Assembly: GCA_000998135.1 (NCBI GenBank)
Contig: LCCV01000004.1
Coordinates: 21,681-85,680 of the forward strand
Source of the DNA: Parcubacteria group bacterium GW2011_GWA2_42_14
GTDB taxonomy: Bacteria > Patescibacteriota > Minisyncoccia > Sungbacterales > GWA2-42-14
Direction of reading: 5' to 3'
Length of the DNA stretch: 64,000 nucleotides
This document shows positions 3,680-55,494 of this stretch, one piece after another. Below the pieces are notes generated by a model. That model did not search any database and had not been told where the DNA came from. It worked only from the letters and a program-made list of their open reading frames with translations. A program made the position numbers and the translations under genes. Position 1 is the stretch's first letter. Every line of letters begins with the position of its first letter.

Positions 3680-3692
3680 ATCCGGGCTTTTG

Positions 3693-5918: not shown

Positions 5919-6006
5919 AAGGCGACTCTAACGACTCGAATTTTGCACACGAATGACTCGAATAAGTTATTAGAGTCATTCGAGTGTAATTCGTATATTG
6001 GAGTCG

Positions 6007-6333: not shown

Positions 6334-6417
6334 TCATTCACTAATTTTATTCGCGAATATTCGCGAAATAATTCGCAATTGATTAGTGATTTTGGAGATA
6401 TTCAGAAACCCTTTTTA

Positions 6418-6774
6418 TCAGTTCCGAAGGGTCAATATTGGTTTTACCAAAAAATCCACGATATTAAGTTTTTCGGTGGCTTCGCGATATTCTTCGCGGC
6501 CGTAATTCGTAAGCATCATTACCGGAATTTTTTTAAACTCTCCTTGTTCCTCATTATTTTTAAAACATCTAAGCCGTCAAGTTTCGGCATGCGTATATCA
6601 AGAATCACAAAATCCGGGTTTTTCCTGTTGAATAAGCTCAGGGTCTTCTTTTCCATCCTTGGCAAGCAAAACCTCCATCCCTTTGTTATTAAAGAGTTTT
6701 TTATAAAGAGTCAGAAGCACCGGGTCGTTGTCAACAACCAAGATTATTTTCTTTGTTTCGTTTTCTTGGGGCAT
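6418..6774 (-). pseudogene. CheY-like response-regulator receiver domain with two compensating frameshifts
   Basis: N-terminal (MPQENETKKIILVVDNDP...EKP) and C-terminal (EFKKIPVMMLTNYGREEY...FLVKPI) segments are in one frame. The central DFVILDIRMPKLDGLDVLKIMRNKE segment is in the +1 frame. The frame-1 reading hits TGA after KPGFCDS. Confidence 0.5.
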
Positions 6775-6844
6775 ATAGTTTTAATGATAAATTACCTTAA
6801 TACAAAAATCAATTCTTTAAATTCCAAAATTTGGATTCATAATC

Positions 6845-6958
6845 TCAAAAAATCCAAAATCCTAATACCCAAATCCCGAATAAATTCAAATTTTAAAATT
6901 CAAAATAGTTTCAACATTTGGTCATTCGGGATTTGAAATTTTGAATTTGGGATTTCAA
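6845..6958. repeat. MITE-like repeat, family F1 (AAATCCCAAATCCCGAATAAATTCAAATTTTAAAATTCAAAAT ... inverted partner)
   Basis: Internal inverted repeat. Homologous copy at 10631-10752. Fragments lie inside gatA and gatB. Confidence 0.65.
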
Positions 6959-6987
6959 TATGCTGAATTTGTTTACTATTTATGGCT

Positions 6988-9219
6988 TCATTTAATAATA
7001 TTTAAAAATTCTTCCTCACTCAATATTTTTACTCCAAATTTCATGGCCTTATTATATTTTAAACCCGGATTTTCACCAGCAACGACATAATCAGTTTTTT
7101 TGTTTACACTTTCAGATATTTCTCCGCCCAAATTGCGGATTTTTCCTTTGGCTTCGTCTCGCGTGAACGATTCTAATTCCCCGGTCAGAACAAACGTTTT
7201 ATCTTTAAACTTGTGTTTTTTTGGTTTTTGGGATTCAATTTTAATTTTTAAGCCAGCTTTTTTAAACCTGTTTAAAAGTTCCCGATTTTTTTTGTCCCGG
7301 AACCAGTTATAAATGCTTTTGGCAACGACACCGCCTATGTCTCGGATTTTTTCCAGTTTTTCCGGTGAGGCCAAATTTAAAGCATTAATTGAACCGAAAT
7401 TTTTGGCAAGGTCAATTGCCGTTTCTTCTCCGACATGATGAATTCCGAGAGAATAAATAAAACGGTTTAATTCAATCGTCCTTTTTTGATTTATGGACGC
7501 GATTAACTTAGAGGCGGATTTTTCGGCAAAACGCTCCAGCGGCTCCAGTTCTTCTTTTTTCAGAGTAAAAATATCAGCCGCGTTTTTAATCAGTCCCGAT
7601 TCAATCAGCGCGTCAATTATTTTCGGGCCGAGACCCTGTATATCAAAAGCTTTTTTGGAAATAAAATGATAAAGTTTTTCGCGCTCTACCGCGCCGCAAT
7701 TTTTATTGGAGCAGTAATAGGCAACGCTAAATTCCTGTTTCTTGTCAGCGCTTTCTATTTTTTTTACCGGCGAGTTGCATACGGGGCAATGAAGCGGCAT
7801 ATGAAATTCTTTCGCGTTTTTTGGGCGCAGACGCCGCAAAACTCCGGTAACCGCGGGAATCACGTCTCCGGCCCGTTCGACTATGACCGTATCGCCGGTT
7901 CTCACATCAAGTCGGCGAATTTCATCTATGTTATGAAGAGTGGCATGAGTAACGGTTACTCCGCCTATTCTTACCGGTTTTAATGTTGCCACCGGAGTTA
8001 AAACTCCGGTTCTTCCGACCTGAACGATTATATTCTTAACAATGGTTGTCGTTTCCTCGGCAGGAAATTTGAAAGCGATAGCGCCTCTCGGAGCTTTTCC
8101 CACAATTCCTAATTTTTCAAAAATTTTTCCGTTATTTATCTGTATCACTACGCCATCAATTAAAAAGGGAAGTTTTTCCCTTTTTCTTCCGACCTCTTTC
8201 CAAAATTCAATAATTTCGTTCGTGTTTTTACAATGTTTCGTAAGCGGTACTGTAGGGAAACCAAGTATTCTCATAATTAAATGTTCTTCCTCGTGGGTTT
8301 CTTGGCCGAGATTCGTAACCAAATCCCAGGCAAAGAATTCAAGGTTTCTTGACGCGGTAATTTTTGGATTAAGCTGTCTTATGGAGCCCGCGGCGATATT
8401 TCGGGGATTGGCAAAAACCGGCAACCCTTTCTTTTTCTGTTCCTTGTTTGCCGCGTTAAACGCGTCTTTGGGCATATAAACTTCGCCTCTTACTTCAATT
8501 TCAGTAATTTTATGGATTGATGAGAGGAATTGCTTAACGCGCGGATATTTTTCAAGAATAATTTTTATTTCCTTGTGTTTTTTGGATAATTCTACGATAT
8601 TTTTTTGTATGCTCAGCGGGATTGATTCCACTGTTTTTAAGTTTTCCGTAACGTCTTCGCCGGTAATTCCGTCTCCGCGGGTTGACCCCGTTAGAAGTTT
8701 AAATAAAATGTTACTTGATTCAAGGGGCATAAGGCGAAAGCCGTTTTGCTTTAAGCTGTTATTGTCATAGTTGGCGTGTTGCCGGACTCCTAACCGGATT
8801 GAGCCGGTTTTAAAAACGCCGTTTTTATAAATGAGAGATACGGCAAAACCGTCGCCCTTGGCTTCGGCAAAATAATCTAATTCTGAAACATGAAACTTGA
8901 AATCTGAAACAAGTTTTTTGATACGGGTTTCCCATTCATGAAGTTCTTCTTCGGAAAAAGCGTCATTTAAAGAAGTCATGCGAACCGTATGCGCAACTTT
9001 TCTGAATTTTTCCAAAGGATTGCCGCCGACCCTTTGCGTCGGCGAATCCGGTGTTAAAAACTCGGGGAACTGTTTTTCGAGTTTCATCAGTTCGTTTTTT
9101 AGGGAATCCAAAGCGGCGTCGGAAATTTCCTGTTTGTCCAAGACATGATAAAGATAGCGGTGATAATTGATTTCTTTTTTTAGTTTTTCTATGCGATCAA
9201 AAACCCTTTTTTTATCCAT
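6988..9219 (-). CDS. ligA: NAD-dependent DNA ligase
   Basis: 743 aa. Adenylation K-x-DG region, Cys4 zinc finger (CPVCNSP...CSNKNCG), HhH and C-terminal BRCT. Ends in TGA. Confidence 0.9.
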   Translation of the reverse strand: MDKKRVFDRIEKLKKEINYHRYLYHVLDKQEISDAALDSLKNELMKLEKQFPEFLTPDSPTQRVGGNPLEKFRKVAHTVRMTSLNDAFSEEELHEWETRIKKLVSDFKFHVSELDYFAEAKGDGFAVSLIYKNGVFKTGSIRLGVRQHANYDNNSLKQNGFRLMPLESSNILFKLLTGSTRGDGITGEDVTENLKTVESIPLSIQKNIVELSKKHKEIKIILEKYPRVKQFLSSIHKITEIEVRGEVYMPKDAFNAANKEQKKKGLPVFANPRNIAAGSIRQLNPKITASRNLEFFAWDLVTNLGQETHEEEHLIMRILGFPTVPLTKHCKNTNEIIEFWKEVGRKREKLPFLIDGVVIQINNGKIFEKLGIVGKAPRGAIAFKFPAEETTTIVKNIIVQVGRTGVLTPVATLKPVRIGGVTVTHATLHNIDEIRRLDVRTGDTVIVERAGDVIPAVTGVLRRLRPKNAKEFHMPLHCPVCNSPVKKIESADKKQEFSVAYYCSNKNCGAVEREKLYHFISKKAFDIQGLGPKIIDALIESGLIKNAADIFTLKKEELEPLERFAEKSASKLIASINQKRTIELNRFIYSLGIHHVGEETAIDLAKNFGSINALNLASPEKLEKIRDIGGVVAKSIYNWFRDKKNRELLNRFKKAGLKIKIESQKPKKHKFKDKTFVLTGELESFTRDEAKGKIRNLGGEISESVNKKTDYVVAGENPGLKYNKAMKFGVKILSEEEFLNIIK

Positions 9220-9284
9220 GTTTACAAAATTAAAAATGAGTGTGTTTTTACTAACCAGTGAAGGCGCAATATCCTTATTCGGTT

Positions 9285-9396
9285 ACCCGGCCCTAATTCC
9301 GAAAATAGTTTACCGCTATGCCATAAGTTAAATCGCGGTATCGCCCGCGGCTTACTTTTTATAAGCGCAGAATTATAACTTAAGAATTAGAGCCGG
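9285..9396. repeat. MITE-like repeat, family F2 (ACCCGGCCCTAATTCCGAA ... GAATTAGAGCCGGG)
   Basis: About 112 bp with 14-bp terminal inverted repeats. Second copy at 18602-18713. Confidence 0.6.
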
Positions 9397-9466
9397 GTTA
9401 AGGTTGGGCAGCCGCAATTTTTTCGTCCTTTGATAAGCTCAGGACTTAAAATTGCGGGCCAAGCAC

Positions 9467-10621
9467 TTAACACTGCCACGCCGGATCTCCCGGGTCTCCG
9501 GTCGGCTTTTTATAGTTATATTCCTTTAAAACTTCATTATCCTGAAGGGTTTTTGAAAAAATTTTTATTTCATCCATAATTCCCTGGAAATTCTGGGCTA
9601 AATTATCAATATTTAATCCGAGTCGCAGCGGTTCATTGCCCTGAGTCAGACTTTCTCCGCGGGGGATAGGAGAGCCTAAAATAATGCCGTTTATATAAAA
9701 TCTTACCTGCGACCCGTCGTAAGTAACCGCGGCATGCGTCCACCTGTTGAGGGTGGTTGCTCCGACCGCGGCGGAATCAGTCGTGAATTCCGTTCCGGCC
9801 GAATCTTTAAATTTAAAACGCAAGTTAAAATTTCCGGTTACCGGCTGGAACAGATAAAAACCGTATGTTTCTTCGGTAGCCCCCGCTCCTTTTTTTAAAA
9901 TAGTTTTGTATCCGTTGACAGCGCTTTTATTACAAACCCAGGAGGTTATGGAAATCGGCCAGTTGAGATTTATGCTTGATGAATTTGGAAACGTTACGCG
10001 GTCATTTTCCGTGTCAAAATACTGCAGTGCTCCGCCGAATACTACCAGCGGAATCGTATTTTGTCTTATTGGGTCTTCTGTTTCAACGCTTGTGGAAAGA
10101 CCCAAAACGCCGTCATTATCGTTGGCCGTCCAGTCAAAAACCGTTTGGCTTGATTCATTGTCAAATCTCCACCAGCCCGCCAAGTTCTCTGCTTCAAGCA
10201 TGGGATACTTAAAAAAGAACGAGCGCTTGGAAAGAAATGAGGAAGTTGTGTCACAGGGCGATCCTCCCGGATATTGTCCTACTCCTAGAATTTCAGTGTA
10301 GCCGGTTCCGGTTTTTTTTGACACTTTTACCGAATTGCAGGCGTTGTTGGAGGCGGTTATTAGCGGGGTGGTCCAGCAATCGTTTGAAAGATTCTGACAA
10401 ATGGCACGGGAAACTCTGTCAAGATAAACCGTTTTTTCAACTATTTCGTCAGCCGCGTAAAGCGCGAAAAACGATGCTCGTATGTCGCCGGAAAGCATAA
10501 GTTCGCTGTAAATAATATCAAATATTCCGAGGGAAATTGAGAGCATTAAAGAGAGCAAAAAGACGGTAAGGAGAAGACTTATACCTCGTTCTTTTTTTAA
10601 TTTTTTCTGCCGCGCTTTCAT
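9467..10621 (-). CDS. pilus-associated protein: N-terminal hydrophobic pilin-like segment plus C-terminal LamG (concanavalin-like) domain
   Basis: MKARQKKLKKERGISLLLTVFLL... N-terminus. C-terminal RFYINGI...FQGIMDEIKIF resembles LamG. Last gene of the pilin operon. The upstream in-frame ATG at 10660 lies inside repeat F1. Confidence 0.5.
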   Translation of the reverse strand: MKARQKKLKKERGISLLLTVFLLSLMLSISLGIFDIIYSELMLSGDIRASFFALYAADEIVEKTVYLDRVSRAICQNLSNDCWTTPLITASNNACNSVKVSKKTGTGYTEILGVGQYPGGSPCDTTSSFLSKRSFFFKYPMLEAENLAGWWRFDNESSQTVFDWTANDNDGVLGLSTSVETEDPIRQNTIPLVVFGGALQYFDTENDRVTFPNSSSINLNWPISITSWVCNKSAVNGYKTILKKGAGATEETYGFYLFQPVTGNFNLRFKFKDSAGTEFTTDSAAVGATTLNRWTHAAVTYDGSQVRFYINGIILGSPIPRGESLTQGNEPLRLGLNIDNLAQNFQGIMDEIKIFSKTLQDNEVLKEYNYKKPTGDPGDPAWQC

Positions 10622-31163: not shown

Positions 31164-31180
31164 CCCCGTTGAAATGTGGT

Positions 31181-31220
31181 GCGAGAATAGTTTAGTGGCA
31201 GAACGACTGCTTCCCAATCC
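31181..31220 (+). other. partial duplicate of the tRNA-Gly 5' half (about 40 nt, no T-arm)
   Basis: GCGAGAATAGTTTAGTGGCAGAACGACTGCTTCCCAATCC, compared with GCGAGATTGGTTTAGTGGTAAAACGAGTGCTTCCCAAGCA in the intact gene 56 nt downstream. Confidence 0.6.
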
Positions 31221-31236
31221 CCGTTAGAAATAGAAT

Positions 31237-31307
31237 GCGAGATTGGTTTAGTGGTAAAACGAGTGCTTCCCAAGCATTAGACAGGAGTTCGATTCTCCTA
31301 TCTCGCA
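31237..31307 (+). tRNA. tRNA-Gly (anticodon CCC)
   Basis: Manual fold: acceptor GCGAGAT/ATCTCGC with G1-C72, C2-G71, G3-C70; anticodon loop TTCCCAA; T-arm AGGAG-TTCGATT-CTCCT. No encoded CCA. Confidence 0.7.
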
Positions 31308-31480
31308 CAATAGTGGACTTTTCGCGCTTCGGCACATCAATCGCCGTTTCTATTTCAGAAAATCTGCGGGTTCTAACATCGTCTAATTGCCCGTATAGAG
31401 AAATGGAACTTTTTATTGCTGATTATTAAAATCTTCTGAGAAAGAAATGGTTTTTGAGTGGTCGGGTGAGGTTCTAACCA
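31308..31480. repeat. module X, copy 1, of a modular repeat of about 180 nt
   Basis: Shares GTGGAC...TTCAGAAA(T)CTCGCGGGTTCTAAC...TATAGAGAAA...TTCTGAGAAAGAAATGGTTTTTGAGTGGTCGGGTGAGGTTCTAAC with 32185-32368 and 33135-33450. Confidence 0.6.
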
Positions 31481-31623
31481 AAAACCTACTAGCTATTGAC
31501 TTATTTTTAGTTTTGTAATAGTCTTGATAATAGAAGTTTCAACCTACCCGAACCCCTCAAGCCGAGTGTTCGGCTTCAAAGGTAAATTTCGGCAAAAACA
31601 AACAGAGAAGGAGGGACCGAAAG

Positions 31624-32082
31624 ATGTTCGGAGTAATCATCGCGGTTTTGATCGGACTGTTTCAGTACATTTTTGTCACGAAGACGCCGGAGGCAATCTG
31701 GCTGACTTCCACGGGCTTTCTGTTTTGGTGGTACATAGTGTGGTCGTCAATCCTTGCCATCATCGTTTTCCTTGTGATGTTGGGTATCACTGGTGCCACG
31801 ACATTCGCGGCTGGATCCACTGGATACGGTGCTGGTAGCAAGTTGTTGCGGGGTATTGGTGGTTTTGTTGGAGGCGGAGCTCTTTCATTGCTGGTCGGTG
31901 TTTTGTTCTTCATTTCCGCTGGCCTAAAAATCGGAGGCATATACTTGCTTTCAACTGCAGTTGTACTTACCGAGCAGGGCTATGTGTGGAATACTACGAC
32001 TTTGATTTTCGGCACCCTTGCTTTGGTCGTTGGACTCATTATGAGCAAATCTTCAGGTTCTTCATCCTCGTCAAAATCCTAG
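31624..32082 (+). CDS. small Gly-rich integral membrane protein with a Ser-rich tail
   Basis: 152 aa with four hydrophobic segments and a ...SSGSSSSSKS C-terminus. Confidence 0.45.
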   Translation: MFGVIIAVLIGLFQYIFVTKTPEAIWLTSTGFLFWWYIVWSSILAIIVFLVMLGITGATTFAAGSTGYGAGSKLLRGIGGFVGGGALSLLVGVLFFISAGLKIGGIYLLSTAVVLTEQGYVWNTTTLIFGTLALVVGLIMSKSSGSSSSSKS

Positions 32083-32103
32083 ACTGGCGAGGCAAACGAG
32101 TTT

Positions 32104-32135
32104 GGCTGGTTGAGCGTATCAACCAGCCGTTTTTT
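32104..32135. terminator. intrinsic terminator
   Basis: GGCTGGTTGAGCGTATCAACCAGCC hairpin followed by TTTTTT. Confidence 0.6.
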
Positions 32136-32184
32136 ATGTAAAATCAGTTCGAGAGAGGTTCTAACATCGTCTATAAAAGTGCAC

Positions 32185-32368
32185 ACTAGTGGACCTTTAG
32201 CGTTCTTGCCGCGCGAAAAGTATTTAGACTTCAGAAATCTCGGAGGTTCTAACGCCGTCTCGTTGCTTGTATAGGGAAAGAGAAAAATTTTTAATTGTCA
32301 AAACCAATTCTTCTGAGAAAGAAATGGTTTTTGAGTGGTCGGGTGAGGTTCTAACTAAAAACCACGAG
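32185..32368. repeat. module X, copy 2
   Basis: See 31308-31480. Confidence 0.6.
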
Positions 32369-32447
32369 ACCTTGTATTTTTTAAGGGAATGATATAATAT
32401 TCTCTACAGAATAGAACACAACAGATACACATTAGGAGGTTTAGACG

Positions 32448-32819
32448 ATGGGAAAGATGGCTTTGCTCGCTGTTTTATTGAGTGTTTTCGTTTTGACCGC
32501 TTGCGACAATGCGCCGCGTTTACCACAAGGAACGCTTGTGAAAGAAGACAACGCAGAAATCCAGGCGCAGTTTGACCGACTTAGCAAAGATGAAACCGCT
32601 ACCGTCACAATCGGAGACGAACATGTAATGTTGATGGTTTTAAAAGATTTCATGAGTACGGACAACATCCGTGGTGTTGGTGGCGGTGATCCATGCAAAG
32701 CATACCGACTTACTGCGAAGGATGGGACAAAAGAAGTTGGGGTTGTCTGCAAAAGTATGCCGTTCGGCAAGAAGTGGGAACATCGCCCGTGGCGCGAATG
32801 GTTTCATTCACTTAGATAA
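32448..32819 (+). CDS. putative lipoprotein
   Basis: MGKMALLAVLLSVFVLTAC lipobox. 123 aa. Confidence 0.45.
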   Translation: MGKMALLAVLLSVFVLTACDNAPRLPQGTLVKEDNAEIQAQFDRLSKDETATVTIGDEHVMLMVLKDFMSTDNIRGVGGGDPCKAYRLTAKDGTKEVGVVCKSMPFGKKWEHRPWREWFHSLR

Positions 32820-33134
32820 TCGTCTAACAGCACAAGCGCCCTTGAGGACACAACCCCAGGGGCATTTTCTTTCAAAATCGAGGTTCTAACGTCGTCTATA
32901 AAAGTGCACCAAAATCTGATTTTCGGAAAATTGACCGACTTTTTCGTTGGCGGCGCAAAGCGCCGCCACCGAAATGGTCTGGAAATTTGCAATTCGTCAG
33001 ATTTTGGTGTGTCTTTACGGTTTGGCTCGAACTCATTTTATCCGAAATTCCTAAAAACTGACTGGAGGCCGCGCTTCGCGCGGAGAATCAGGAATTTTTG
33101 ATAAAATAGTTTCGAGCCGTACTGTAAAGATACA

Positions 33135-33450
33135 CAATAGTGGACTTTTAGCGCTTCGGCGCATCAATTGCCGTTTCTATTTCAGAAATCTCGCGGGTTC
33201 TCCTCCTTCGCTCTACGAGCTTCGGCGGACGCAGTAACACTTGCCTTGCCGTAGCTTCAGCGAAGGCAGGTCGTCTCGCTGCCCGCTTGCCCTGCCGTAG
33301 CTTTACGCGACTGCGTGCCACCTTAGCTTTAGCGGTGGAGCAAGGCGGGTATAGAGAAGTAGAACTTTTTATTGCTAAAAACTAAAATTTTCTGAAAAAG
33401 AAATGGTTTCTCAATGGTTTTGCAGAGGTTCTAACAAAAAAGCGGCTTGA
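33135..33450. repeat. module X, copy 3, with a GC-rich hairpin-rich insertion of about 150 nt (33201-33347)
   Basis: The module is split at CGCGGGTTCT | ... | GGGTATAGAGAAG. The insert contains repeated CC..GCCGTAGCTTYA..G hairpins. Confidence 0.55.
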
Positions 33451-33486
33451 TGTTATCGCGCCGCTATGGATAGTGGAATAGTGGTT

Positions 33487-34017
33487 TTAAGAATCTTCTT
33501 CGTCATACTCGATTTGTTGTTTTAAGATGCTCTCTTGAATATTGTTTGGTTTATCAACAGTCCAGTACTTCCAATGCGGCTTAATCCACCATGAATGAAA
33601 TTTAATGTTAACCCTGCCTTCAAAAAATATCTCCATCAGATGATCATCCAATACGATTCTTAAGAACGATCTTTCGGGCTCCGGAAGGGCGGGATCATAC
33701 GGATCAATTCCACGATTTAATATAACCATTTTTCCAACACCATCTTCCGTTGGCTCAATTCTCTCATATGCCAGAGAAAACCCCTTTTGATAATCATTCA
33801 AAAGAAAGTGAAACACCTCGCTTGAATCAATAAATAGATGCAGACCCGATTTGTTTTTTTTAAAAGTAAGCGTTCGGCCTTCTAATTTTTTATTGACCTT
33901 TACCGTACCGCCCATTGAGCCGACTAATCTAATATACAGCAAATCTACGGGATACTTGTCCAGACACAGCTTTAAATTTTTAAAATCTAACTTTTTTGGC
34001 ATCCAATATTGTTCCAT
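33487..34017 (-). CDS. hypothetical protein
   Basis: 176-aa ORF inside the repeat island. Confidence 0.4.
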   Translation of the reverse strand: MEQYWMPKKLDFKNLKLCLDKYPVDLLYIRLVGSMGGTVKVNKKLEGRTLTFKKNKSGLHLFIDSSEVFHFLLNDYQKGFSLAYERIEPTEDGVGKMVILNRGIDPYDPALPEPERSFLRIVLDDHLMEIFFEGRVNIKFHSWWIKPHWKYWTVDKPNNIQESILKQQIEYDEEDS

Positions 34018-34165
34018 CCGAAAACCCTCTAATTTTATATTTTGTAAAGTAACTTATCTGATATTACTTTAACGATATTAGACATTTTTGCAAATGAAAC
34101 AGGTTCTAACGTCGTCTATAAAAGTGCATAAAAAATTAAAACGGCCGTTAAAGCCGTTTTTAAAA

Positions 34166-38943: not shown

Positions 38944-39034
38944 CCACGTTAAAGGCCATAATACGGCCTTTTTTCATAAGCAACACCGAGTGTTGCTTAT
39001 TTGGCTGGCGGAAAATAATAGGTATAATGGATTT

Positions 39035-40348
39035 ATGAAGAAATATTTTATTGCCAGTTTGGCCTCTTTCGGAATTATCGGCGCTTTTTGGCTGTCTGCC
39101 AATTTTAATATTGTCAATATTTCCGGGCTGTGGAATAAAACGCCTTCGCAGGGCCTTGCTCAAAAAGAGGAAAAAACAAATGAACCGGAAAAACCGCGTG
39201 AAAAAACAAAAGAAGAATTGGTTGCCGAAGCCCTGGAAAAATCAAATAATATTAAAGGGGTTTATATGACCGCGGCCGTTGCCACCGACAATGGGGCCGC
39301 TTCCAAACGTCTTCGCCAATCACTTGTGGATTTGGTTAAGACAACGGAATTAAATGGGATTGTTATTGATATCAAAGAAACTGACGGGGTTTTTCTTCCA
39401 GAATCTCTGAAAAAATTTATTGAAGAATTGCATAAAGACGATATTTGGGTGATTGCGCGTTTGGTCGTTTTTAACGACACGGTTGAGGCCAAAGCAAATC
39501 CAAAAATAGCATTAAAACGCATCAATGGAAAATTATGGCTAGACCGGCGGGGAAATGGCTGGCTGGATCCGGCAAGTCAAGAGGCCTGGGATTATATTGC
39601 CGGAATTTCTAAAAAAGCAATTGATTATGGATTTGATGAGATTCAATACGACTATATAAGATTTCCATCTGACGGCGATACAAAAAATATTGTCTACCCT
39701 GTGTATAAATCTAAAACAACTCCTAAATATGTTGTCTTGAAATCATTTTTTGAATATATCAGCAAGGCATTGAAAGAATATAAACCCAGTATAATTCTTT
39801 CGGCTGACCTTTTTGGGTACGTGGCCACACAAGCTAATGATTTGGGAGTTGGGCAGAGAATTGAAGACATCGGCAACAGTTTTGATTATATTTCTTTTAT
39901 GCTTTATCCGAGCCACTATTATTCCGGTTTCCAGGTTCCGGCAGATTCTGTTCGCGGACTCCCCGCCGTTTATTTTCCCTACCGGGGAAAAGTCGTAAAA
40001 GATTTGGCTTCCAATCGGCCTTATGAAGTCGTGCATCGTTCATTGCTTTTCGCCATGGATATTTTGTCGGGAAGAGTTGCCACTTCATCTTTGGCTGGCG
40101 TTAACGCAAAAAAAATGGCTACTTCAACGTTGATTGTGCGGGAATCCGAAATTAAGCCGTTAAGCAAATCCCGGCTTCGGCCATGGCTTCAGGATTTTGA
40201 TTTGTCCGCCGACACTTCCAGAGGCATAAAGTACGACGTGGAAAAGGTCAGGGCGCAAATTATGGCCTCCGAAAACGCCGGCGCTTCCGGCTGGCTCTTG
40301 TGGAATCCGTCCAATGTTTATACTAAAGAAGCTTTGCAGTTAAAGTAG
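39035..40348 (+). CDS. putative TIM-barrel glycoside-hydrolase-like protein (GHL/DUF4015-type)
   Basis: N-terminal TM segment. IKGVYMTA... NGIVIDIKETDG ... FDEIQYDYIRFP pattern. Its last 27 codons are duplicated at 41773-41852. The upstream in-frame ATG at 38990 is a possible alternative start. Confidence 0.45.
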   Translation: MKKYFIASLASFGIIGAFWLSANFNIVNISGLWNKTPSQGLAQKEEKTNEPEKPREKTKEELVAEALEKSNNIKGVYMTAAVATDNGAASKRLRQSLVDLVKTTELNGIVIDIKETDGVFLPESLKKFIEELHKDDIWVIARLVVFNDTVEAKANPKIALKRINGKLWLDRRGNGWLDPASQEAWDYIAGISKKAIDYGFDEIQYDYIRFPSDGDTKNIVYPVYKSKTTPKYVVLKSFFEYISKALKEYKPSIILSADLFGYVATQANDLGVGQRIEDIGNSFDYISFMLYPSHYYSGFQVPADSVRGLPAVYFPYRGKVVKDLASNRPYEVVHRSLLFAMDILSGRVATSSLAGVNAKKMATSTLIVRESEIKPLSKSRLRPWLQDFDLSADTSRGIKYDVEKVRAQIMASENAGASGWLLWNPSNVYTKEALQLK

Positions 40349-40360
40349 ATTGTCCAGCTC

Positions 40361-40403
40361 TTGTAAATTAACCTCATTTCGATTATAATCGAAATGAGGT
40401 TAA
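40361..40403 (+). promoter_or_regulatory. putative autoregulated promoter: TTGTAA, 17 nt, TATAAT, with the -10 centred in a 16-bp perfect palindrome (TTAACCTCATTTCGAT|TATAAT|CGAAATGAGGTTAA)
   Basis: Read directly. Immediately upstream of the wHTH (AbiEi-like) gene. Confidence 0.5.
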
Positions 40404-40429
40404 TTTTTATCAATAAAAATCGAAACAAT

Positions 40430-41023
40430 ATGCTGAAAAAAGAAGCAATTTGGCGGGAAATTTTAATTCAGGCCCGAATGAATAAAAAGGCAATATTTAC
40501 CCAAAAAGAACTTGCGGCTTATTTTGGCTTTTCTCTAAGCACCGTTTTTAATGCCCTTAAAGTTTTACGGGCGGCGAACATTATATCGGTTAGCGGCAGG
40601 AATTTTCGTTTGGAATCATATCAAAAACTGCTTTATCTCTGGGCTTCGTTTAGGACATTTCGTAATGATTTAGCATATAGCGCGCGAATCGCGCTTGATC
40701 CAAAAAAGATAGAATCATCAGTTCCTCCCGACAGCGACTTTGGTCTTTATAGCGCGTCTGTTCTTTTATATCATATTGAGCCGGCTGACTACGACCATAT
40801 ATATCTGTATGCTGACGAGGCGCGCATCGCCGAAATTTTTGAACGATTTCCCGGGGCGGATCTTTCCTCCAAAAATCCTAATTTTTTTATTCTTAAAAAA
40901 GATCAATGGCTCACGCGGTATGCGGAAATGCCGCTTGAACAGATTTTTGTTGATATTTGGAATGCGCCGGAATGGTATGCAAAAGATTTTTTGAAAAATA
41001 TAGAGGATAAACTTTTGCCGTAA
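40430..41023 (+). CDS. winged-HTH regulator / antitoxin, AbiEi-like
   Basis: N-terminal wHTH (FTQKELAAYFGFSLSTVFNALKVLRAANII) plus a C-terminal domain. Paired with a downstream nucleotidyltransferase. The upstream in-frame ATG at 40394 is a possible alternative start. Confidence 0.45.
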   Translation: MLKKEAIWREILIQARMNKKAIFTQKELAAYFGFSLSTVFNALKVLRAANIISVSGRNFRLESYQKLLYLWASFRTFRNDLAYSARIALDPKKIESSVPPDSDFGLYSASVLLYHIEPADYDHIYLYADEARIAEIFERFPGADLSSKNPNFFILKKDQWLTRYAEMPLEQIFVDIWNAPEWYAKDFLKNIEDKLLP

Positions 41024-41035
41024 GGGCAATAGACC

Positions 41036-41128
41036 TGTTGCTTAATAATTTTTTGGGAAAATTTGATGCAAAAAACCCTTATTTTAAGCCACTAATTTTT
41101 TAAAAAAACGGCTAAAATCTTAATAGAC
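41036..41128. repeat. element F8 (AATAGACCTGTTGCTTAATA ... TTAATAGAC); its core is inverted relative to the copy at 55382-55478
   Basis: The central 70 bp is the exact reverse complement of the corresponding segment at 55400-55470. Flanked by TTAATA/TATTAA. Confidence 0.6.
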
Positions 41129-41140
41129 GAAATAATAAAT

Positions 41141-41764
41141 ATGGAACAATTTTGGCACAATATAATTACTGATAAGTCTTTTGTTTTTTTGCAGAAATTA
41201 AGAAAGAAGTTCAAATTTGTTTTAATCGGCGGCTGGGCGGTTTATTTTTATACCCATTCGCTTAAATCAAAGGATATTGATATCATCGTCAATTTTGAAG
41301 AACTGGGGCGTCTTCGTGAATCTTTTGACGTGAGAAAAAACGATCGGCTGAAAAAATATGAAATCCAGCAAGCCGGATTTGATATTGATATTTATGTTCC
41401 GCATTGGTCGGAACTCGGCCTGCCGCTTGAGGACGTTCTCAATACAGCAACGCTTATTGAGGGTTTTCGGGTTCCGGAAAAAGAGGTACTATTCGCGTTA
41501 AAACTATTTGCGTATTCACAAAGAAAATCTTCGCTAAAGGGAAAAAAAGATATGATTGATATCCTAAGTCTTTTATATTCTGGCGGTGCCCGGTTTCCAT
41601 CCCTTTTTAAAATAATTGAAAAATATAATGCCCGCGGCATCGGCGCGGAGCTTAAGGAGATTTTGACGACAGTTTTTGAAGTAAAAGAGTTAAATCTAAA
41701 CCGGAAGCATTTTTCGGACTTTAAGAAACCGATTCTCAAAGAATTGCAATCGAGAAATTTTTAA
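41141..41764 (+). CDS. nucleotidyltransferase-fold protein, AbiEii-like toxin candidate
   Basis: VLIGGWAVYFY ... KDIDIIV: an NTase G[GS] motif followed by DxD. Confidence 0.45.
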   Translation: MEQFWHNIITDKSFVFLQKLRKKFKFVLIGGWAVYFYTHSLKSKDIDIIVNFEELGRLRESFDVRKNDRLKKYEIQQAGFDIDIYVPHWSELGLPLEDVLNTATLIEGFRVPEKEVLFALKLFAYSQRKSSLKGKKDMIDILSLLYSGGARFPSLFKIIEKYNARGIGAELKEILTTVFEVKELNLNRKHFSDFKKPILKELQSRNF

Positions 41765-41772
41765 ATTTCCCT

Positions 41773-41852
41773 AATTATGGCCCCCGAAAACGCCGGCGCT
41801 TCTGGCTGGCTCTTGTGGAATCCGTCCAATGTTTATACTAAAGAGGCCTTAA
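41773..41852 (+). repeat. direct repeat: displaced duplicate of the 3' end of the GH-like gene (about 80 bp, about 95% identical to 40262-40336)
   Basis: ATTATGGCCCCCGAAAACGCCGGCGCTTCTGGCTGGCTCTTGTGGAATCCGTCCAATGTTTATACTAAAGAGGC compared with the gene copy; it would encode ...NVYTKEALRGR*. Confidence 0.7.
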
Positions 41853-41903
41853 GGGGCCGATAAATGTCTTTTAAAGGTCCCTGTTTTATGCTATAATGGG
41901 TAT

Positions 41904-42203
41904 ATGAAACTGCCGCCATTTCTCCATAAATATTTCTGGGATGTGGATTTTAAAAAATTGGATTCTAAAGCAGACGGTCAATATATTATTGAGCGCATTT
42001 TGGAATACGGGGACGAAAAGGCGGTTAATTGGCTGAAAAAAAATATTGAGCGCCGTTTTATCGTGTCAGTTTTAAAAAATTGCCGGTCCCTTTCTCCCCA
42101 AAGCGCTAATTTTTGGGCAGTTATTTTTAGGGTTCCGGCGGCTAAAGTTTTATGTTTAAATAAATCGTTTCTAGAAAGACGTTTTAATCACTGGATTTGG
42201 TAG
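41904..42203 (+). CDS. hypothetical protein
   Basis: 99 aa; weak call. Confidence 0.3.
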   Translation: MKLPPFLHKYFWDVDFKKLDSKADGQYIIERILEYGDEKAVNWLKKNIERRFIVSVLKNCRSLSPQSANFWAVIFRVPAAKVLCLNKSFLERRFNHWIW

Positions 42204-42336
42204 TTTGATTTATTTTGAAGACGCCGAAAAACAAAAAATGCCCCGTTTGATTAAAAACGTAAGTTGGCTCGCAGTCAAGAATTTTTTTGCAAGCGAAACA
42301 AGGCACATCTGCCTTGAGACTGATTGAACATTTTTT

Positions 42337-42429
42337 CGTCATTCTGACCCTGAGCGAGACGAAGGGGAAGAATCTTTTAATTAAGCCGCATTTGAGATTC
42401 TTCAGTCGTTCTGCTCCTTCAGAATGACG
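42337..42429. repeat. MITE-like repeat, family F3 (copy 2)
   Basis: CGTCATTCTGA ... TCAGAATGACG termini and the inner GAAGAATCT/AGATTCTTC repeat. Confidence 0.6.
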
Positions 42430-42502
42430 ACCGTATGATAATTATTCAACAGTACCGTTTTAGGAAGTTTATTATTTGAAATAAAAGTGTTATCATGAGT
42501 AT

Positions 42503-42808
42503 ATGCGTCTTGAACATTATCCTGTTGAAAAATTGAAAAAAGAGATTCTGGAAAGTATCGGTCGGCATCTTGACCTTTCGCAGTACCGGGTTTTTTTCTT
42601 TGGTTCGCGCGTTGCCGGCAAGGGCACAGACCGTTCGGATATTGATGTTGGTATTGAAGGAAAAGAGCCTGTGCCGTTTATAATTCTTGAGGATATAAAA
42701 GAAGATTTTGAGAAAATACCAACGTTATATAAAATTGACATAGTTGATTTTTGCCGTGTTGCGCCTAAATTTCGGGTGGTGGCGCTTCAAAAGGTGGAGT
42801 CGCTATGA
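42503..42808 (+). CDS. minimal nucleotidyltransferase (MntA-like antitoxin)
   Basis: FFGSRVAGKGTDRSDIDVGI (GS...DxD). Confidence 0.7.
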   Translation: MRLEHYPVEKLKKEILESIGRHLDLSQYRVFFFGSRVAGKGTDRSDIDVGIEGKEPVPFIILEDIKEDFEKIPTLYKIDIVDFCRVAPKFRVVALQKVESL

Positions 42809-42812
42809 AATT

Positions 42813-43202
42813 ATGACAAAATTTCAATCTCTCTATGAAGATTTTCGCAGCGCTCTTGAACGTTTTGACGAGATTCTAAAAGAACCCAAGAATGATATAG
42901 TGCGGGATTCCGCCATTAAGCGGTTTGAATTGGTTTTTGAGCTTGCCTGGAAAACAACTAAGGCTTATCTTGAAGATTACCATAATGGCACTTGCGTATC
43001 GCCACGCGAGTGTTTTCGCGAAGCATTTCGTATCGGCCTAATTGAACATGATGAACACTGGATAGGCATGACTGCCACGAGGAATTATACCGTGCATGCC
43101 TATAAACAAGCGCTTGCTGAAAAGATATATGTTGAGTTGCCTCAAACACTTATAATGTTTAAAAAACTCGCCGAAGCCTTCGAAAAAAATAAATCCGCTT
43201 AA
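42813..43202 (+). CDS. HEPN-domain protein (HepT-like toxin, HI0074 family)
   Basis: RDSAIKRFELVFELAWK ... TRNYTVHAY (Rx4-6H). Start lies within 8 nt of the MNT stop. The upstream in-frame ATG at 42744 overlaps the MNT gene and is probably not the real start. Confidence 0.7.
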   Translation: MTKFQSLYEDFRSALERFDEILKEPKNDIVRDSAIKRFELVFELAWKTTKAYLEDYHNGTCVSPRECFREAFRIGLIEHDEHWIGMTATRNYTVHAYKQALAEKIYVELPQTLIMFKKLAEAFEKNKSA

Positions 43203-43347
43203 GGAATGGCCTGTTATTCTTTTTTAACTCAGTTCGATTGTCGCCGAAATGAGTCTTTGTTTTATAGCAAAAAAGCGAAATGAATAAAGCTGTTTAATTA
43301 GGCATTAATCGTAAATAATTTTCCGATTTCAAAAGTTTCCAACGTAA

Positions 43348-44157
43348 CTAATAGGGAGTGAAGGTAAGGATAATACCCCATTCTTTTTTTGCCCATTCTT
43401 GTAGAGCTTTTAACTCGTGTTCAGTAACGCCCGCCGAATTGCTATAGAATTTTTCCTGCTTATCTTTTAATTGTAAGTCAAGAACAAATTCCATTGTTTC
43501 ATGGGGCAGCGCTATTAACAGTTCCTCGTCGGTTTTTCCTCGTTTTTTTTCGTATTGCAAGCTTTTTGTAATTTCTTCCATTTTAGGATGAGAAGGGTCT
43601 ACATCATATTCCCAAATCCCGGCAGGATCCAGTACCGAATGTTTTAACTGGTAACGCATCCCTTGTTCTTTCATAAAAATTTTTTGCCTAAGCAGGGTAA
43701 GAATGTCCGCGGAGGAAGGAAGGAACGGAAATTTTGTTTTTTTGTCGCGTTTAGCTTCTTGAATGGTTTCCGGAGGCAGTAGTTTTTTCTTTTCAGCCAT
43801 AAGAATGGGATGAGTATGGACAAAATGCATCATTTCTATTTTTGCGTCTTCCAGGAGCGGAAGTAGGTCTATGCTCTGGCCCATATCTTCCATCATAACC
43901 CCTTCAATATTAAGCCAGCCCTCGGTTTTATTTTTTTTAACGTACGCAAAAAACCTTTCTTGTTTTTCTTCAAATACTGCCGTCCTTAAACGGTCGAGGC
44001 CCTGTGCAAACGTTTCATTAAAGAATTCTCTCGCGGGCAATAATTTTTCCAGTTCCGCCAGAGCGCGTTTGGAAGAAAAAATTTCTGCAAAAAAAGCCCC
44101 GCCGGCCAAACCGGTTTTCAAAAATTCTCTTCGCGATAATTTTTCTTCCTCGGCCAT
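43348..44157 (-). CDS. secreted protein with a twin-arginine (Tat) signal peptide
   Basis: MAEEEKLSRREFLKTGLAGGAFFAEIF...ALA. The called ORF extends N-terminally into repeat F3, so I take the start at the Tat-motif Met. Confidence 0.45.
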   Translation of the reverse strand: MAEEEKLSRREFLKTGLAGGAFFAEIFSSKRALAELEKLLPAREFFNETFAQGLDRLRTAVFEEKQERFFAYVKKNKTEGWLNIEGVMMEDMGQSIDLLPLLEDAKIEMMHFVHTHPILMAEKKKLLPPETIQEAKRDKKTKFPFLPSSADILTLLRQKIFMKEQGMRYQLKHSVLDPAGIWEYDVDPSHPKMEEITKSLQYEKKRGKTDEELLIALPHETMEFVLDLQLKDKQEKFYSNSAGVTEHELKALQEWAKKEWGIILTFTPY

Positions 44158-44186
44158 AATGATTGCGTTAATTATGTTGAAATAGT

Positions 44187-44269
44187 CGTCATTCTGAGGC
44201 CGCAGCCGAAGAATCTCAACAAAATTTGTAAGATTCTTCCCCTTCGCACCGCTCATGGTCAGAATGACG
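44187..44269. repeat. MITE-like repeat, family F3 (copy 3)
   Basis: As above. Confidence 0.6.
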
Positions 44270-44369
44270 CGCTAGCTATACGGCCCCAGAGCGAGTACTA
44301 TTTCAACAGACACTAACTAAACAGCGATAGGAAATTAGGTGCAACCTGTTGGCGGCATTCGAGCGCTGA

Positions 44370-45635
44370 CTAAAAGTAAGATAGCGGTATAAATTTAATT
44401 TTGGTTTTGCCGATTTTTTCTTCTCCCAGATAATCTTTGGTTAAAATCAGAGCCGTCGGGGGTTTAAATTTTTCTATAAAACTAAATAAACTTTTGCCGA
44501 CTAATCGCTTAGAAACATATTTAATTTCTATCGGATAAACCGACTGTTCTTTTTCAATGATAAAATCCACCTCGGCCTTGGCTTTGGTGCGCCAGTATTT
44601 AATGTGCCCGCCAAAGAAATTTTTAAGCAGGATAAATCCATAGTTTTCCGCGAGATTTCCCGCGTCATTTCTTAGTTCTAAGGCGCGCCAATCCGCTAAA
44701 GAATAATTTCTCAATCCCAAATCATTAAAATAAACTTTGGGATTTTTAACCAATTCCGTCCGTTTATTGACAAAAAACGGAAGGACAAAAGAAACAACAT
44801 AAGTTTTAACCAATATATTTAAATGTTTTTTGAGTTCCGGATAGTTCAGGCCCGAGGCATTAGATAATTCTTGATATTTAACAATGCGGCCAATTTGCCC
44901 CGCCAGAAATTTCCCTAATCTTTCAAGTTCCAGGTCGGTCGCCAAACGAAGAAGTTCCTTAATATCTTTTAAAAGATATTTTTCATAGATGCTTTCTAAA
45001 ATCTTTTTTTTCTCCTCCGGCTTCTCCGATAAAACCGCCGCCGGATAACCGCCGAAAATCATATATTCTTCAAGCAGTCCGGCCAATTTTGCATTTATTT
45101 CCCGGCCAAAAACATTACGCAGGTCAAAATCAAAAATGTCGCCGTGGGGCATACTCTCCAAAAGATTATATATTTCTTTGTCGCGCGCTAATAAAAATTC
45201 CCTGAAGGAAAAGGGGTTGAGCGGGAATTCAATAAGCCGTCCCACCATATATTTGCCGGTCTGAAAAGTTAGTTCCAGCGACGACGACCCGGAAATAATA
45301 AATTTTACCGGCGTAGTGTCGTAGAGATACTTTAATTTCTGGCCTCCTTCCAGGCCGTACTGGAATTCGTCAATAAAAACGACTTCATACTGTTGAACTA
45401 TTTTTTTGAAATCTTCAATGTTCTGGTTAAACAATTCTAAATCCGCCCTTTTTTCAAAAGTAATAAACCTGATTTTTTGTCCTTCCCGCTTAATCCGGTC
45501 AGCTAAATTTTCAATAAAGGTTGTTTTGCCAGCCTGCCTTGGTCCGACAATGGAAATGGCTTCTTTTCTGGCCAAAAATGGCTCTATAACAGCTTCCAAT
45601 TGCCTCGGTATATAAATAATCCTGCTATTATTCAT
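44370..45635 (-). CDS. AAA-family ATPase (AAA_14 / DUF4143-type)
   Basis: Walker A GPRQAGKTT, a Walker B FIDEFQ-like motif, and a C-terminal DUF4143-like region. Confidence 0.65.
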   Translation of the reverse strand: MNNSRIIYIPRQLEAVIEPFLARKEAISIVGPRQAGKTTFIENLADRIKREGQKIRFITFEKRADLELFNQNIEDFKKIVQQYEVVFIDEFQYGLEGGQKLKYLYDTTPVKFIISGSSSLELTFQTGKYMVGRLIEFPLNPFSFREFLLARDKEIYNLLESMPHGDIFDFDLRNVFGREINAKLAGLLEEYMIFGGYPAAVLSEKPEEKKKILESIYEKYLLKDIKELLRLATDLELERLGKFLAGQIGRIVKYQELSNASGLNYPELKKHLNILVKTYVVSFVLPFFVNKRTELVKNPKVYFNDLGLRNYSLADWRALELRNDAGNLAENYGFILLKNFFGGHIKYWRTKAKAEVDFIIEKEQSVYPIEIKYVSKRLVGKSLFSFIEKFKPPTALILTKDYLGEEKIGKTKIKFIPLSYF

Positions 45636-53248: not shown

Positions 53249-54115
53249 ATGGATAAGCAAAACGGGTTAATAAGAAAACTAAAAGAGTATTTTGAAAAGC
53301 GCGATGACGTGGCGATGGCTTTTTTATTCGGGTCGCGGGCCGAAGATCGGCGGCATTCCGGTTCCGACTGGGATATTGCCGTATATTTTAAACCAGAGGT
53401 GGAACGAACCGAATGGGAAGAACATAACCGCGAGTACCCGGAAGAAACCCGTGTCTGGGGCGACTGTGTTGATATTTTAAAAACGGATAAAGTGGATTTG
53501 CTAGTGCTTAATCGGGCCCCAGCTACCATTGCCGATTCGGCCATACGCGGCGTCCCGTTAGTGGTAAAAGACCGCGGACTCTGGTTAGAGTTTATGCTTA
53601 TTATTACCAGCGCTGCTGAAGATTTGAGAGAATTTGCCCGTGATTATTACGAAATTTATATGCGCTCAAAATCTCTTACCTTGCGCGACGCGGAGAGATT
53701 AGGCAGAATTATTGAGTTTATTAATAATCAAATGACTCTTTATTCGGTTTTTCGCGAGCTTACTTTTGGAGAATACGAGAAGGATTTGATTAAACGCGGA
53801 GCGGCAGAGCGCTGGGTTGAGAATATGGTTAACTCGACAATGGATATTTCTAAAATAGTTCTTTCCTCCAGCAAAAAGCCCATGCCTTACGGCTATGCGG
53901 ACACGATTCGCGTTGCTCTGCTTTATTTAAACATTAATGATGGGTTTTGGCAAAAATTTTTGGATTGGGTTAAGCTCCGGAACGCTTTGGCTCACGAATA
54001 TACTGATATTAAGTGGAAGAAAATTGAAGATTTTGCCAAAACCAGCGAACCTTATTTTCAGACCTTAGTTAAATCAGCCCAAACATTTTTGGAAAGAGAA
54101 AGAGAAGGCGTTTAG
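53249..54115 (+). CDS. fused minimal nucleotidyltransferase + HEPN (DUF86) protein
   Basis: N-terminal FLFGSRAEDRRHSGSDWDIAVY (GS...DxD). C-terminal LRNALAHEY (Rx4-6H). Confidence 0.65.
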   Translation: MDKQNGLIRKLKEYFEKRDDVAMAFLFGSRAEDRRHSGSDWDIAVYFKPEVERTEWEEHNREYPEETRVWGDCVDILKTDKVDLLVLNRAPATIADSAIRGVPLVVKDRGLWLEFMLIITSAAEDLREFARDYYEIYMRSKSLTLRDAERLGRIIEFINNQMTLYSVFRELTFGEYEKDLIKRGAAERWVENMVNSTMDISKIVLSSSKKPMPYGYADTIRVALLYLNINDGFWQKFLDWVKLRNALAHEYTDIKWKKIEDFAKTSEPYFQTLVKSAQTFLEREREGV

Positions 54116-55381: not shown

Positions 55382-55478
55382 AATAGACCTGTTGCTTATT
55401 AAGATTTTAGCCGTTTTTTTAAAAAATTAGTGGCTTAAAATAAGGGTTTTTTGCATCAAATTTTCCCAAAAAATTATT
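55382..55478. repeat. element F8 (copy 2; core inverted relative to 41036-41128)
   Basis: See 41036-41128. Confidence 0.6.
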
Positions 55479-55494
55479 AATGCGGAACAAAGCC

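Follow-up and report, generated by a model that had tools for sequence, protein, structure and literature searches.

Small recombinase-less modules, bracketed by recombination sites and mobilised by an enzyme whose gene lies elsewhere, are known from the Xer-dependent integrative mobile elements exploiting Xer (IMEXs) and from pdif modules. The cis-mobilizable elements (CIMEs) possess neither integrase nor transfer genes; they are decayed integrative and conjugative elements (ICEs) or integrative and mobilizable elements (IMEs), moved by the integrase of a related element, and successive elements pile up with a copy of the target end between them (PMC5704250). The CR2-sul2 unit is reported to be an integrase-less segment moved in trans by the integrase of the GIsul2 island (PMC9376610). 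The minimal mobile elements (MMEs) of Neisseria are recombinase-less whole-gene cassettes, exchanged between strains by homologous recombination (PMC3082526). In gene content, the relevant systems are AbiE and MenAT with their DUF1814 toxins, of which MenT1 adds CMP to the 3' ends of tRNA (PMC10435456; PMC7450476). In silico analysis of a stretch of 64,000 nucleotides from Parcubacteria group bacterium GW2011_GWA2_42_14 (contig LCCV01000004.1), here called the window, revealed a cassette of two genes, a presumed antitoxin (ORF1) and a presumed toxin (ORF2), at the 3' end of a putative glycoside hydrolase (GH) gene, the end of which is repeated behind the cassette. The coordinates of all features are collected in Table 1.

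The GH host gene encodes 437 residues from an ATG at 39035, and its product is identical to P0121 (437 aa). Its final 26 codons form the first copy (DR1) of a 78-nt direct repeat, the second copy of which (DR2) begins 8 nt past the ORF2 stop codon. In a repeat search of the window the two copies were identical at 74 of 78 positions (95%), with mismatches at repeat positions 11, 31, 73 and 76. With up to three mismatches allowed, a 72-nt version of the repeat matched nowhere but at DR1 and DR2, and found no match in 100 shuffles. DR1 continues the reading frame of the DUF4015 gene, with ...IMASENAGASGWLLWNPSNVYTKEALQLK (longer reading ...NPSNVYTKEALQLK) before the stop; DR2 reads ...IMAPENAGASGWLLWNPSNVYTKEALRGR (longer reading ...NPSNVYTKEALRGR), and its stop is at the homologous codon. 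The two endings have the appearance of genuine gene ends, because 13 GH orthologues end alike, with a C-terminal ...NVYT.EAL mostly followed by three residues. The original prediction, a direct repeat of the GH gene end of about 80 bp and 95% identity with a second copy encoding ...EALRGR, is in agreement with these results, including the in-frame stop of DR2.

The repeat is present, and 100% identical, in independent assemblies, including two metagenome-assembled genomes (MAGs) at NCBI and a 51.7-kb ENA contig, and is therefore not an assembly artefact. Across other independent assemblies the locus is 99.8-100% identical, and it is found as well in MHQY01000033.1, from a Candidatus Sungbacteria MAG (Parcubacteria, candidate phyla radiation, CPR) of the Rifle aquifer (GCA_001820775.1). 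The exact 35-nt core of the repeat had no match in the metagenome contig collection; one JGI contig with the core exists elsewhere. Orthologues of the GH gene in L097 (79% amino acid identity) and in L098 and L099 (72%) possess a single gene end, with neither cassette nor second copy, which supports the predicted insertion into the end of the gene. The L-numbers used here denote the loci and contigs compared.

The ORF1-ORF2 pair is not confined to this locus. A word-indexed search gave 2592 homologues of ORF2 and 287 of ORF1, mostly from CPR bacteria. Of 160 loci drawn from collections of genomes and metagenomes, 157 have the two homologues side by side, with ORF1 immediately before ORF2. Cassettes that are 84-92% identical in DNA occupy flanks without detectable similarity, and the homology between such loci runs exactly from the -35 box (CTTGACA) to within about 25 nt of the ORF2 stop. 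These limits indicate a mobile unit that extends from promoter to stop, about 1.3 kb, and the sequence comparisons support the pair as a discrete mobile module.

For the analysis of the flanks, the 700 nt upstream of ORF1 were compared with the 700 nt downstream of ORF2. Direct repeats of at least 40 bits were present at 16 of 108 analysable loci and inverted repeats at none of the 108, while displaced controls gave 3 of 99 and 4 of 91. At the threshold of at least 30 bits, repeats were found at 30 loci, the window and L180 among them, with a length of 17-285 nt and an identity of 77-100%. In 13 of these 30 the start of the second copy falls within a span that runs from 13 nt before the ORF2 stop to 16 nt behind it. 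An automated rule placed ten repeats at the 3' end of the upstream gene and three at the 5' beginning of the gene downstream; the remainder are intergenic, often terminators. No sequence relationship links the repeats of different loci, and no shared motif, such as an AAAAYCGC-like one, was seen at the repeat edges across the 30 aligned loci. Further copies of the cassette with other flanking gene ends, the search for which had been proposed as a check, do exist in many CPR genomes, at times as arrays of several cassettes, and the mobility ascribed to the cassette in the original prediction is supported by closely related cassettes in unrelated flanks, by the family-wide enrichment of repeats and by the serial accretion described below.

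In L125, one of these loci, the cassette lies between two perfectly matching 285-nt copies of a gene's 5' part (2959-3243 and 4604-4888). The upstream copy is a truncated gene start, the intact gene starts 4 nt past the toxin stop, and the duplication looks like a very recent event. In L072 (5081-6816) the module is embedded among arrayed 62-nt repeats that contain a hairpin (CTTAAAAGGCAAGTTTAACGAGGTTGCACCTCGACGGGTACATCGAGGAACAACCTCAAATAC).

Serial accretion with one gene-end copy for each cassette is seen at two loci, L180 and L049. In L180, which comes from a sister species, the proteins are 84% (GH), 70% (ORF1) and 66% (ORF2) identical to those of the window, and the order is as follows: the GH gene with DR1, a cassette of a winged helix-turn-helix (wHTH) and a nucleotidyltransferase (NTase) gene, DR2, a DUF6922-AbiEii (PF08843) pair, and DR3. 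All three GH-end copies read in frame as far as the homologous stop codon, DR3 being the most decayed. In L049 (Saccharibacteria, 2771-10510) the gene of a surface protein ends in ..NSLDYVVMVRNWTV before the stop; its 59-nt end occurs four times in a row, and the copies separate four units, AbiEii, MNT-HepT, wHTH-NTase and MNT-HepT. A paralogue of the host gene, located downstream, has the same end. A related arrangement is present in L030 (2275-7161), where repeats of about 145 nt, composed of a short coding end, a terminator and then a -35 box, separate AbiE, wHTH-NTase, AAA_14-DUF4143 ATPase and phytase-like units. Compared to L180, the second cassette of the window is degenerate. The DUF6922 gene is followed by a 79-nt tail that in the sister species comes after AbiEii; AbiEii has been deleted from the window lineage, and the third gene-end copy is gone.

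The gene-end copies behind the cassettes bear the marks of former use. In ten pairs of working and orphan copies, 43 synonymous and 33 non-synonymous codon differences were counted, which is 57% synonymous against an expected 21% for random change; in L049 the ratio is 8 to 1. Since the differences are mostly synonymous, the orphan copies appear to have once served as real gene ends. In L180 it is the working GH end, ..NSKNEYT.., that is atypical, while ..NPSNVYT.. is retained in its oldest orphan, in the window copies and in the orthologues. These observations fit a gene end that would arrive with the cassette and replace the resident one, and the claim that the insertion supplied a replacement end finds its support in the synonymous excess of the orphans and in the derived working end of L180. 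Other orphans look decayed, namely L180 DR3, L037 (with a frameshift) and L057, so that both import and decay occur.

Recombinant alleles are frequent at the locus itself. Contig L003 contains, in sequence, the last 28 nt of ORF2, the 8-nt spacer, a hybrid repeat, the cassette promoter and a whole cassette. The hybrid repeat has mismatch 1 in the DR2 state and mismatches 2-4 in the DR1 state, which places the crossover within CCGAAAACGCCGGCGCTTC, a stretch of 19 identical nucleotides. An assembly graph with k of at least 21 could not have joined the two paths, because this stretch is too short. The junction indicates a circle or a tandem copy, as judged from its sequence; a polymerase chain reaction (PCR) chimera formed at the repeat is possible. 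In L010 one DR1 position has been converted to the DR2 state. Contigs L001 and L002, from two samples, are of the sister-species type up to 40403 and 40449, respectively, and of the window type beyond, and are recombinants of the two sister lineages with different breakpoints. In L181 a GH allele about 15% divergent from that of L180 is joined to the L180 array (99.3% match), the near-identity starting at the cassette operator. The gene-end copies are 95% identical within the window and 84-87% within L180, whereas orthologous copies are 74-84% identical between species; the higher identity within a genome is a mark of gene conversion or of repeated re-insertion.

At L163 (3114-3241) some 25 nt of an ORF2 3' end survive as a relic upstream of the first repeat, and are seen as the trace of a former tandem cassette, comparable to the L003 junction.

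Neither the insert nor the annotated 20 kb surrounding it was found to contain a recombinase or integrase, a check of 20 further ORFs of the window gave none either, and profile scans of the insert genes upheld the earlier statement that the insert contains no integrase. Likewise, no integrase was found near the arrays examined (the sister locus L180, L049 and L030), and no intI among the genes and window ORFs checked. The ORF1-ORF2 family was not found on viral contigs or in phage records, and gave one weak plasmid match (29% identity). A transposon or insertion sequence was rejected: there is no transposase, no terminal inverted repeats (TIRs) are reported at the cassette ends, and the flanking repeats of 17-285 nt are mostly imperfect.

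The explanation preferred here, in which belief and doubt are about evenly balanced, is an integrase-less toxin-antitoxin cassette that would enter and leave by a single crossover through a carried copy of the gene end. The cassette (promoter, operator, ORF1 and ORF2; about 1.3-1.4 kb) would travel with a short copy of the end of the host gene, either in circular form or as linear DNA whose two repeats would join it into a circle. After a single crossover of the Campbell type between the carried copy and the chromosomal gene end, the host gene would still be intact, with its end partly imported and the cassette directly after its stop codon, while the former gene end would be displaced downstream as the orphan copy. 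Repeated integration would stack the cassettes, the newest beside the gene and each with one gene-end copy behind it, and exchange between copies could lead to excision, tandem amplification and gene conversion. The crossover would be made by the general homologous recombination of the host, which is the most likely agent because the cassette carries no recombinase, and which is favoured over a trans-acting enzyme because the exchange points are several and the repeat sequences differ by locus; on this question the evidence leans toward homologous recombination. The first capture of a new target's copy might proceed through imprecise excision followed by re-insertion.

Several observations weigh against this explanation; (i) no empty site has been found in the same species and the cassette is present in every population contig; (ii) about 80% of the loci have no detectable flanking repeat; (iii) at several loci the repeats are intergenic or lie at gene 5' ends rather than 3' ends; (iv) some repeats measure just 17-30 nt, which is short for RecA; (v) the circle or tandem junction is known from one contig, L003, with 28 nt of ORF2 at its end and a PCR chimera as another possible source; (vi) homologous recombination alone cannot explain the first capture of a new target copy, and related cassettes are found at unrelated loci; (vii) different cassette types share repeat boundaries in L180 and L049, for which a fixed crossover site is the simpler account. 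With regard to the first point, look-ups with DUF6922, GH, ORF1 and ORF2 gave occupied sites or repeat-broken contigs only, and the 90% cluster of the GH protein contains no allele ending in ..EALRGR. The uninterrupted locus that had been proposed as a check was recovered in the GH orthologues, and in the same species the sites are occupied.

Shared boundaries are also what would be expected if a site-specific recombinase, its gene located elsewhere in the genome or on a helper element, performed the crossover, a reading regarded as unlikely but realistic. The cassettes would then be cis-mobilizable hitchhikers or CIME-like remnants, and the repeats would be attL and attR. Integration into a gene 3' end with restoration of that end, followed by tandem accretion, is the classical signature of an integrase (PMC5704250), and the reported mobilisation of an integrase-less unit by GIsul2 is a parallel case (PMC9376610). 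Two unrelated cassettes of L180 have the same left limit of the repeat (C.GATT...GAAAACGCCGGCG), and this 13-mer is identical in all five copies; all L049 copies end at the stop codon, and the L003 crossover lies inside one short identical stretch. The absence of an integrase from the window and from the vicinity of the arrays examined argues against such an enzyme, as do the lack of sequence relationship between the repeats of different loci, with no common edge motif seen, and the presence of several exchange points at the locus instead of one. Moreover, the tight fit between the second repeat and the ORF2 stop at many independent loci is unlike the random decay of larger elements.

It is rather improbable that the target was duplicated in place at insertion, by template switching at the replication fork or by widely staggered breaks, so that no copy was carried and the orphan simply decays. 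Such duplication would account for the highly variable length of the repeats, for their position at gene 3' ends, 5' ends or between genes, for the perfect repeats of L125 (285 nt, 100%), L069, L025 and L145, for the decayed orphans and for arrival at unrelated loci without a carried copy. If the orphan decayed in place while the working copy drifted synonymously, a synonymous share of 35% would be expected, and the excess observed in the orphans lies above it (P = 8e-5). The four copies in L049 have four different Leu codons at one site with the amino acid unchanged, and in L180 it is the working end that is derived while the oldest orphan retains the ancestral motif; both speak against decay in place. 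To our knowledge, no bacterial mechanism produces duplications of 17-285 nt around a precisely bounded insert.

That the second copy is the leftover of a paralogous or tandem hydrolase gene, overwritten by the cassette and unlinked to its insertion, is very unlikely; a paralogous origin of the second copy had been named in the original prediction as a possible refutation. In L029, L091 and L049 the repeated end does occur in neighbouring paralogous genes too. The GH gene is single-copy in the window, with nothing GH-like upstream of 41773, and DR2 is therefore not part of a paralogue; nor does a leftover agree with the start of DR2 just behind the ORF2 stop, with the three copies of the sister species, each reported directly behind a cassette, or with the single end of the cassette-free orthologues. 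A template and variable repeat pair of a diversity-generating retroelement (DGR), elements in which CPR genomes are rich and whose layout is a gene 3' end with a nearby imperfect copy, was rejected and is hardly conceivable, as no reverse transcriptase domain occurs among the insert and the neighbouring genes scanned (38990-45635) and the mismatches (T/C, C/T, A/G, T/C) are not adenine-specific, adenine being involved in just one of four, and the same low credence applies to an assembly artefact, given identical copies in independent assemblies.

The interval between DR1 and DR2 holds exactly two genes, the promoter with its operator and a fragment of a miniature inverted-repeat transposable element (MITE). 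A perfect 42-nt palindrome (40365-40406) is centred on the -10 box of the cassette promoter, with a fold of -25.2 kcal/mol (z -6.5). It is presumed to be the operator of the winged-helix protein ORF1, and could serve as the terminator hairpin of the host gene as well. Unrelated loci have the same layout, with TTGACA, ATTTC(G/T)A.TAT.AT.GAAAT over the -10 box, AAAATCGAAAC and ATG, which supports an autoregulation of the cassette by ORF1 as predicted from sequence. Of the palindromic autoregulatory promoter proposed originally, the palindrome on the -10 box is therefore established and conserved across loci, and autoregulation is inferred.

ORF1 is presumably both antitoxin and autorepressor. 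Its AlphaFold model has a pLDDT (predicted local distance difference test) of 92.8, and its matches in PDB are limited to the wHTH part; the C-terminal domain is conserved and matches no solved structure. No AbiEi model matched ORF1 in Pfam, NCBIfam or PADLOC, and no AbiEi chain appeared in the Foldseek top 50 or in a profile search of the PDB sequences (E <= 1). The generic Crp/FNR-like winged helix alone was recognised, and ORF1 does not fall within the AbiEi-type antitoxins (COG5340), which combine an N-terminal wHTH of the AbiEi family with a C-terminal antitoxicity domain. ORF2 is presumed to be the toxin. It scored 15.6 bits against AbiEii (PF08843; cut-off 22.5, C-terminal half only) and 15.7 bits against DUF6036 (cut-off 23.6), while its homologue P0079 passes both cut-offs. 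A literature search on DUF6036 found nothing. The ORF2 model (pLDDT 91.5) has its best PDB matches in MenT1, 8an4 and 8an5 (E 1e-5, TM 0.57-0.63), followed by JHP933. As in AbiE-type operons, the putative antitoxin gene comes first, in the 157 of 160 loci mentioned, and the promoter has a conserved inverted repeat, with repression predicted. A toxin-antitoxin activity of the pair is predicted. The name AbiE-like, given to the cassette at first, applies loosely and probably fits its mode of action; the toxin fold is of the MenT1/AbiEii type, with scores below the Pfam cut-offs; the AbiEi identity of ORF1 did not hold, a confirmation of AbiEi and AbiEii by hidden Markov models was not obtained at curated thresholds, and membership in AbiE is not established.

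The MITE between ORF1 and ORF2 is a passenger outside the cassette proper. It is polymorphic among population contigs, being absent from L002, L004 and L005. At a distance of 14 kb the minus strand has another partial copy (55384-55480). The window is without 98 bp at 41125/41126 that longer public copies have, including MHQY01000033.1 (L007 10733-10830). What is missing comprises the right-hand MITE end together with 83 nt in front of ORF2 that contain two hairpins, and the three MITE-less contigs, with the shorter spacer version, have those 83 nt only. The gap is either a real variant or an altered window sequence.

Table 1. Coordinates of the cassette, its flanking gene-end copies and the neighbouring units (window positions)
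Feature	Position	Strand	Remarks
Host gene, DUF4015 putative glycoside hydrolase (GH)	39035..40348	+	PF13200, E 2.1e-77
DR1, working gene-end copy	40258..40335	+	coding sequence runs on to the stop 40346-40348
Cassette promoter/operator	40361..40406	+	-35 TTGTAA 40361-40366; -10 TATAAT 40384-40389; 17-nt spacer
ORF1, 197 aa, N-terminal winged helix-turn-helix	40430..41023	+	HTH_Crp_2, E 3e-6; start fixed by family alignment
Truncated MITE	41031..41125		TIRs TAGACCTGTTGCTTA..; about 110 bp in public copies
ORF2, 207 aa, Pol-beta-type nucleotidyltransferase of the MenT/AbiEii/DUF6036 kind	41141..41764	+	GG-x12-DID motif
DR2, orphan gene-end copy	41773..41863	+	repeat 41773-41850, then RGR, stop 41861-41863
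Remnant of second cassette	41904..42289	+	DUF6922 gene 41904-42203 (99 aa; PF21956, E 5e-14) and 79-nt tail 42211-42289
MNT-HepT toxin-antitoxin pair, further unit of the island	42503..43202	+	MNT 42503-42808; HepT 42813-43202
Decayed cassette operator, 5' leader and ATG	43223..43290	+	71% over 58 nt; compared by eye with the family promoter layout

The surroundings of the cassette form an island of similar units. The DUF6922 gene of the window is an orphan; in L180 (6427-7437) its counterpart and a bona fide AbiEii gene overlap, an arrangement that suggests DUF6922 proteins as the antitoxin partners of AbiEii toxins. The decayed operator behind the HepT gene of the window is read, from its resemblance to the family layout, as a probable relic of another wHTH-NTase cassette. 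An inverted pair of sequences resembling repetitive extragenic palindromes (REP), 40 nt long and 90% identical (42337-42376 and 44230-44269; ..GTCATTCTGA..GAAGAATC..), flanks the MNT-HepT region and a 302-aa gene. An AAA_14-DUF4143 gene, as found in L030, is present in the island too (44370-45635, minus strand). Farther downstream, at 53249-54115, one 288-aa ORF joins an MNT-type nucleotidyltransferase to a HepT domain and thus represents the fused form of the two-gene pair. Upstream of the locus, at 31180-34130, dispersed repeats of 28-137 nt with 81-100% identity were found in the L007-window self-comparison.

Most toxin-antitoxin and small defence modules carry no mobility genes, so that their spread from one genome to another has largely lacked an explanation. 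The locus and its relatives offer a concrete and testable route: the cassette is sharply delimited, would bring a copy of the target end with it, and forms arrays in which successive arrivals are recorded. Should homologous recombination be the sole agent, this would be a minimal form of gene mobility, suited to the tiny, streamlined genomes of CPR bacteria, in which the C-terminal codons of host genes are repeatedly replaced. If a hidden recombinase is responsible, the repeats supply the sites for finding the enzyme. In either case, gene-end copies are a possible simple marker for the annotation of such islands in CPR genomes. It is tentatively suggested, as a possibility regarded as rather less likely than not, that these loci belong to a previously undescribed mobile cassette system of the CPR, in which toxin-antitoxin or defence modules, each extending from promoter to stop, would use the short imitation of a gene end as their homology address, rely on the homologous recombination of the host only for insertion and excision, rewrite the last codons of the host gene with each visit and build integron-like arrays with neither a dedicated integrase nor an attachment-site hairpin. 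Full-text literature searches that covered toxin-antitoxin cassettes of the CPR, flanking repeats and cassettes without an integrase turned up no paper with this arrangement.

Compared to the known systems, the cassette resembles CIMEs and the tandem accretion at the 3' ends of protein genes (the ICESt1/ICESt3 family at fda, streptococcal IMEs) in having no integrase and in leaving copies of the gene end. It has the structure by which CIMEs are defined, and the pattern of accretion recurs in L180 and L049. However, there are major differences. The cassette is a 1.3-kb toxin-antitoxin module running from promoter to stop, with sharp limits, at many unrelated sites and with unrelated repeats of 17-285 nt, and no integrase-bearing relative or larger parent element was found in the window, the sister locus or the arrays examined. 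The CR2-sul2 unit, the IMEXs and the pdif modules use a fixed, recognisable site, att or dif, in contrast to the locus-specific repeats described here, which have no shared motif.

The arrays also recall integrons and clusters of attC sites lacking integron-integrases (CALINs), often with toxin-antitoxin cassettes, in which similar repeats stand between small cassettes of one or two genes; the most recent arrival is probably the cassette beside the entry point, and a circular cassette intermediate is plausible. In contrast to integrons, the gene-end repeats are coding and form no attC hairpin, the first repeat is the working end of the host gene, and each cassette has its own conserved -35/-10 promoter, whereas integron cassettes are mostly promoterless and expressed from Pc, which adjoins intI/attI. 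The presence of attC-like hairpins in the repeats was considered and rejected, as folding of either strand was no better than that of shuffles (z -1.7 to +0.8).

With regard to gene content, the pair is similar to AbiE and MenAT, with a DNA-binding partner upstream, a Pol-beta nucleotidyltransferase with MenT1 as its best match downstream, and a palindromic operator over the promoter. It differs from them in that ORF2 falls below the AbiEii and DUF6036 cut-offs and ORF1 has no AbiEi (COG5340) or MenA match beyond the generic winged helix. The Neisseria MMEs are the nearest in the manner of exchange, and the recombinants L001, L002 and L181 show exchange of this kind. Nevertheless, MMEs move by a double crossover in two conserved flanking genes and leave no duplication. 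In the cassette described here one flank is duplicated, which points to the single crossover of a circle.

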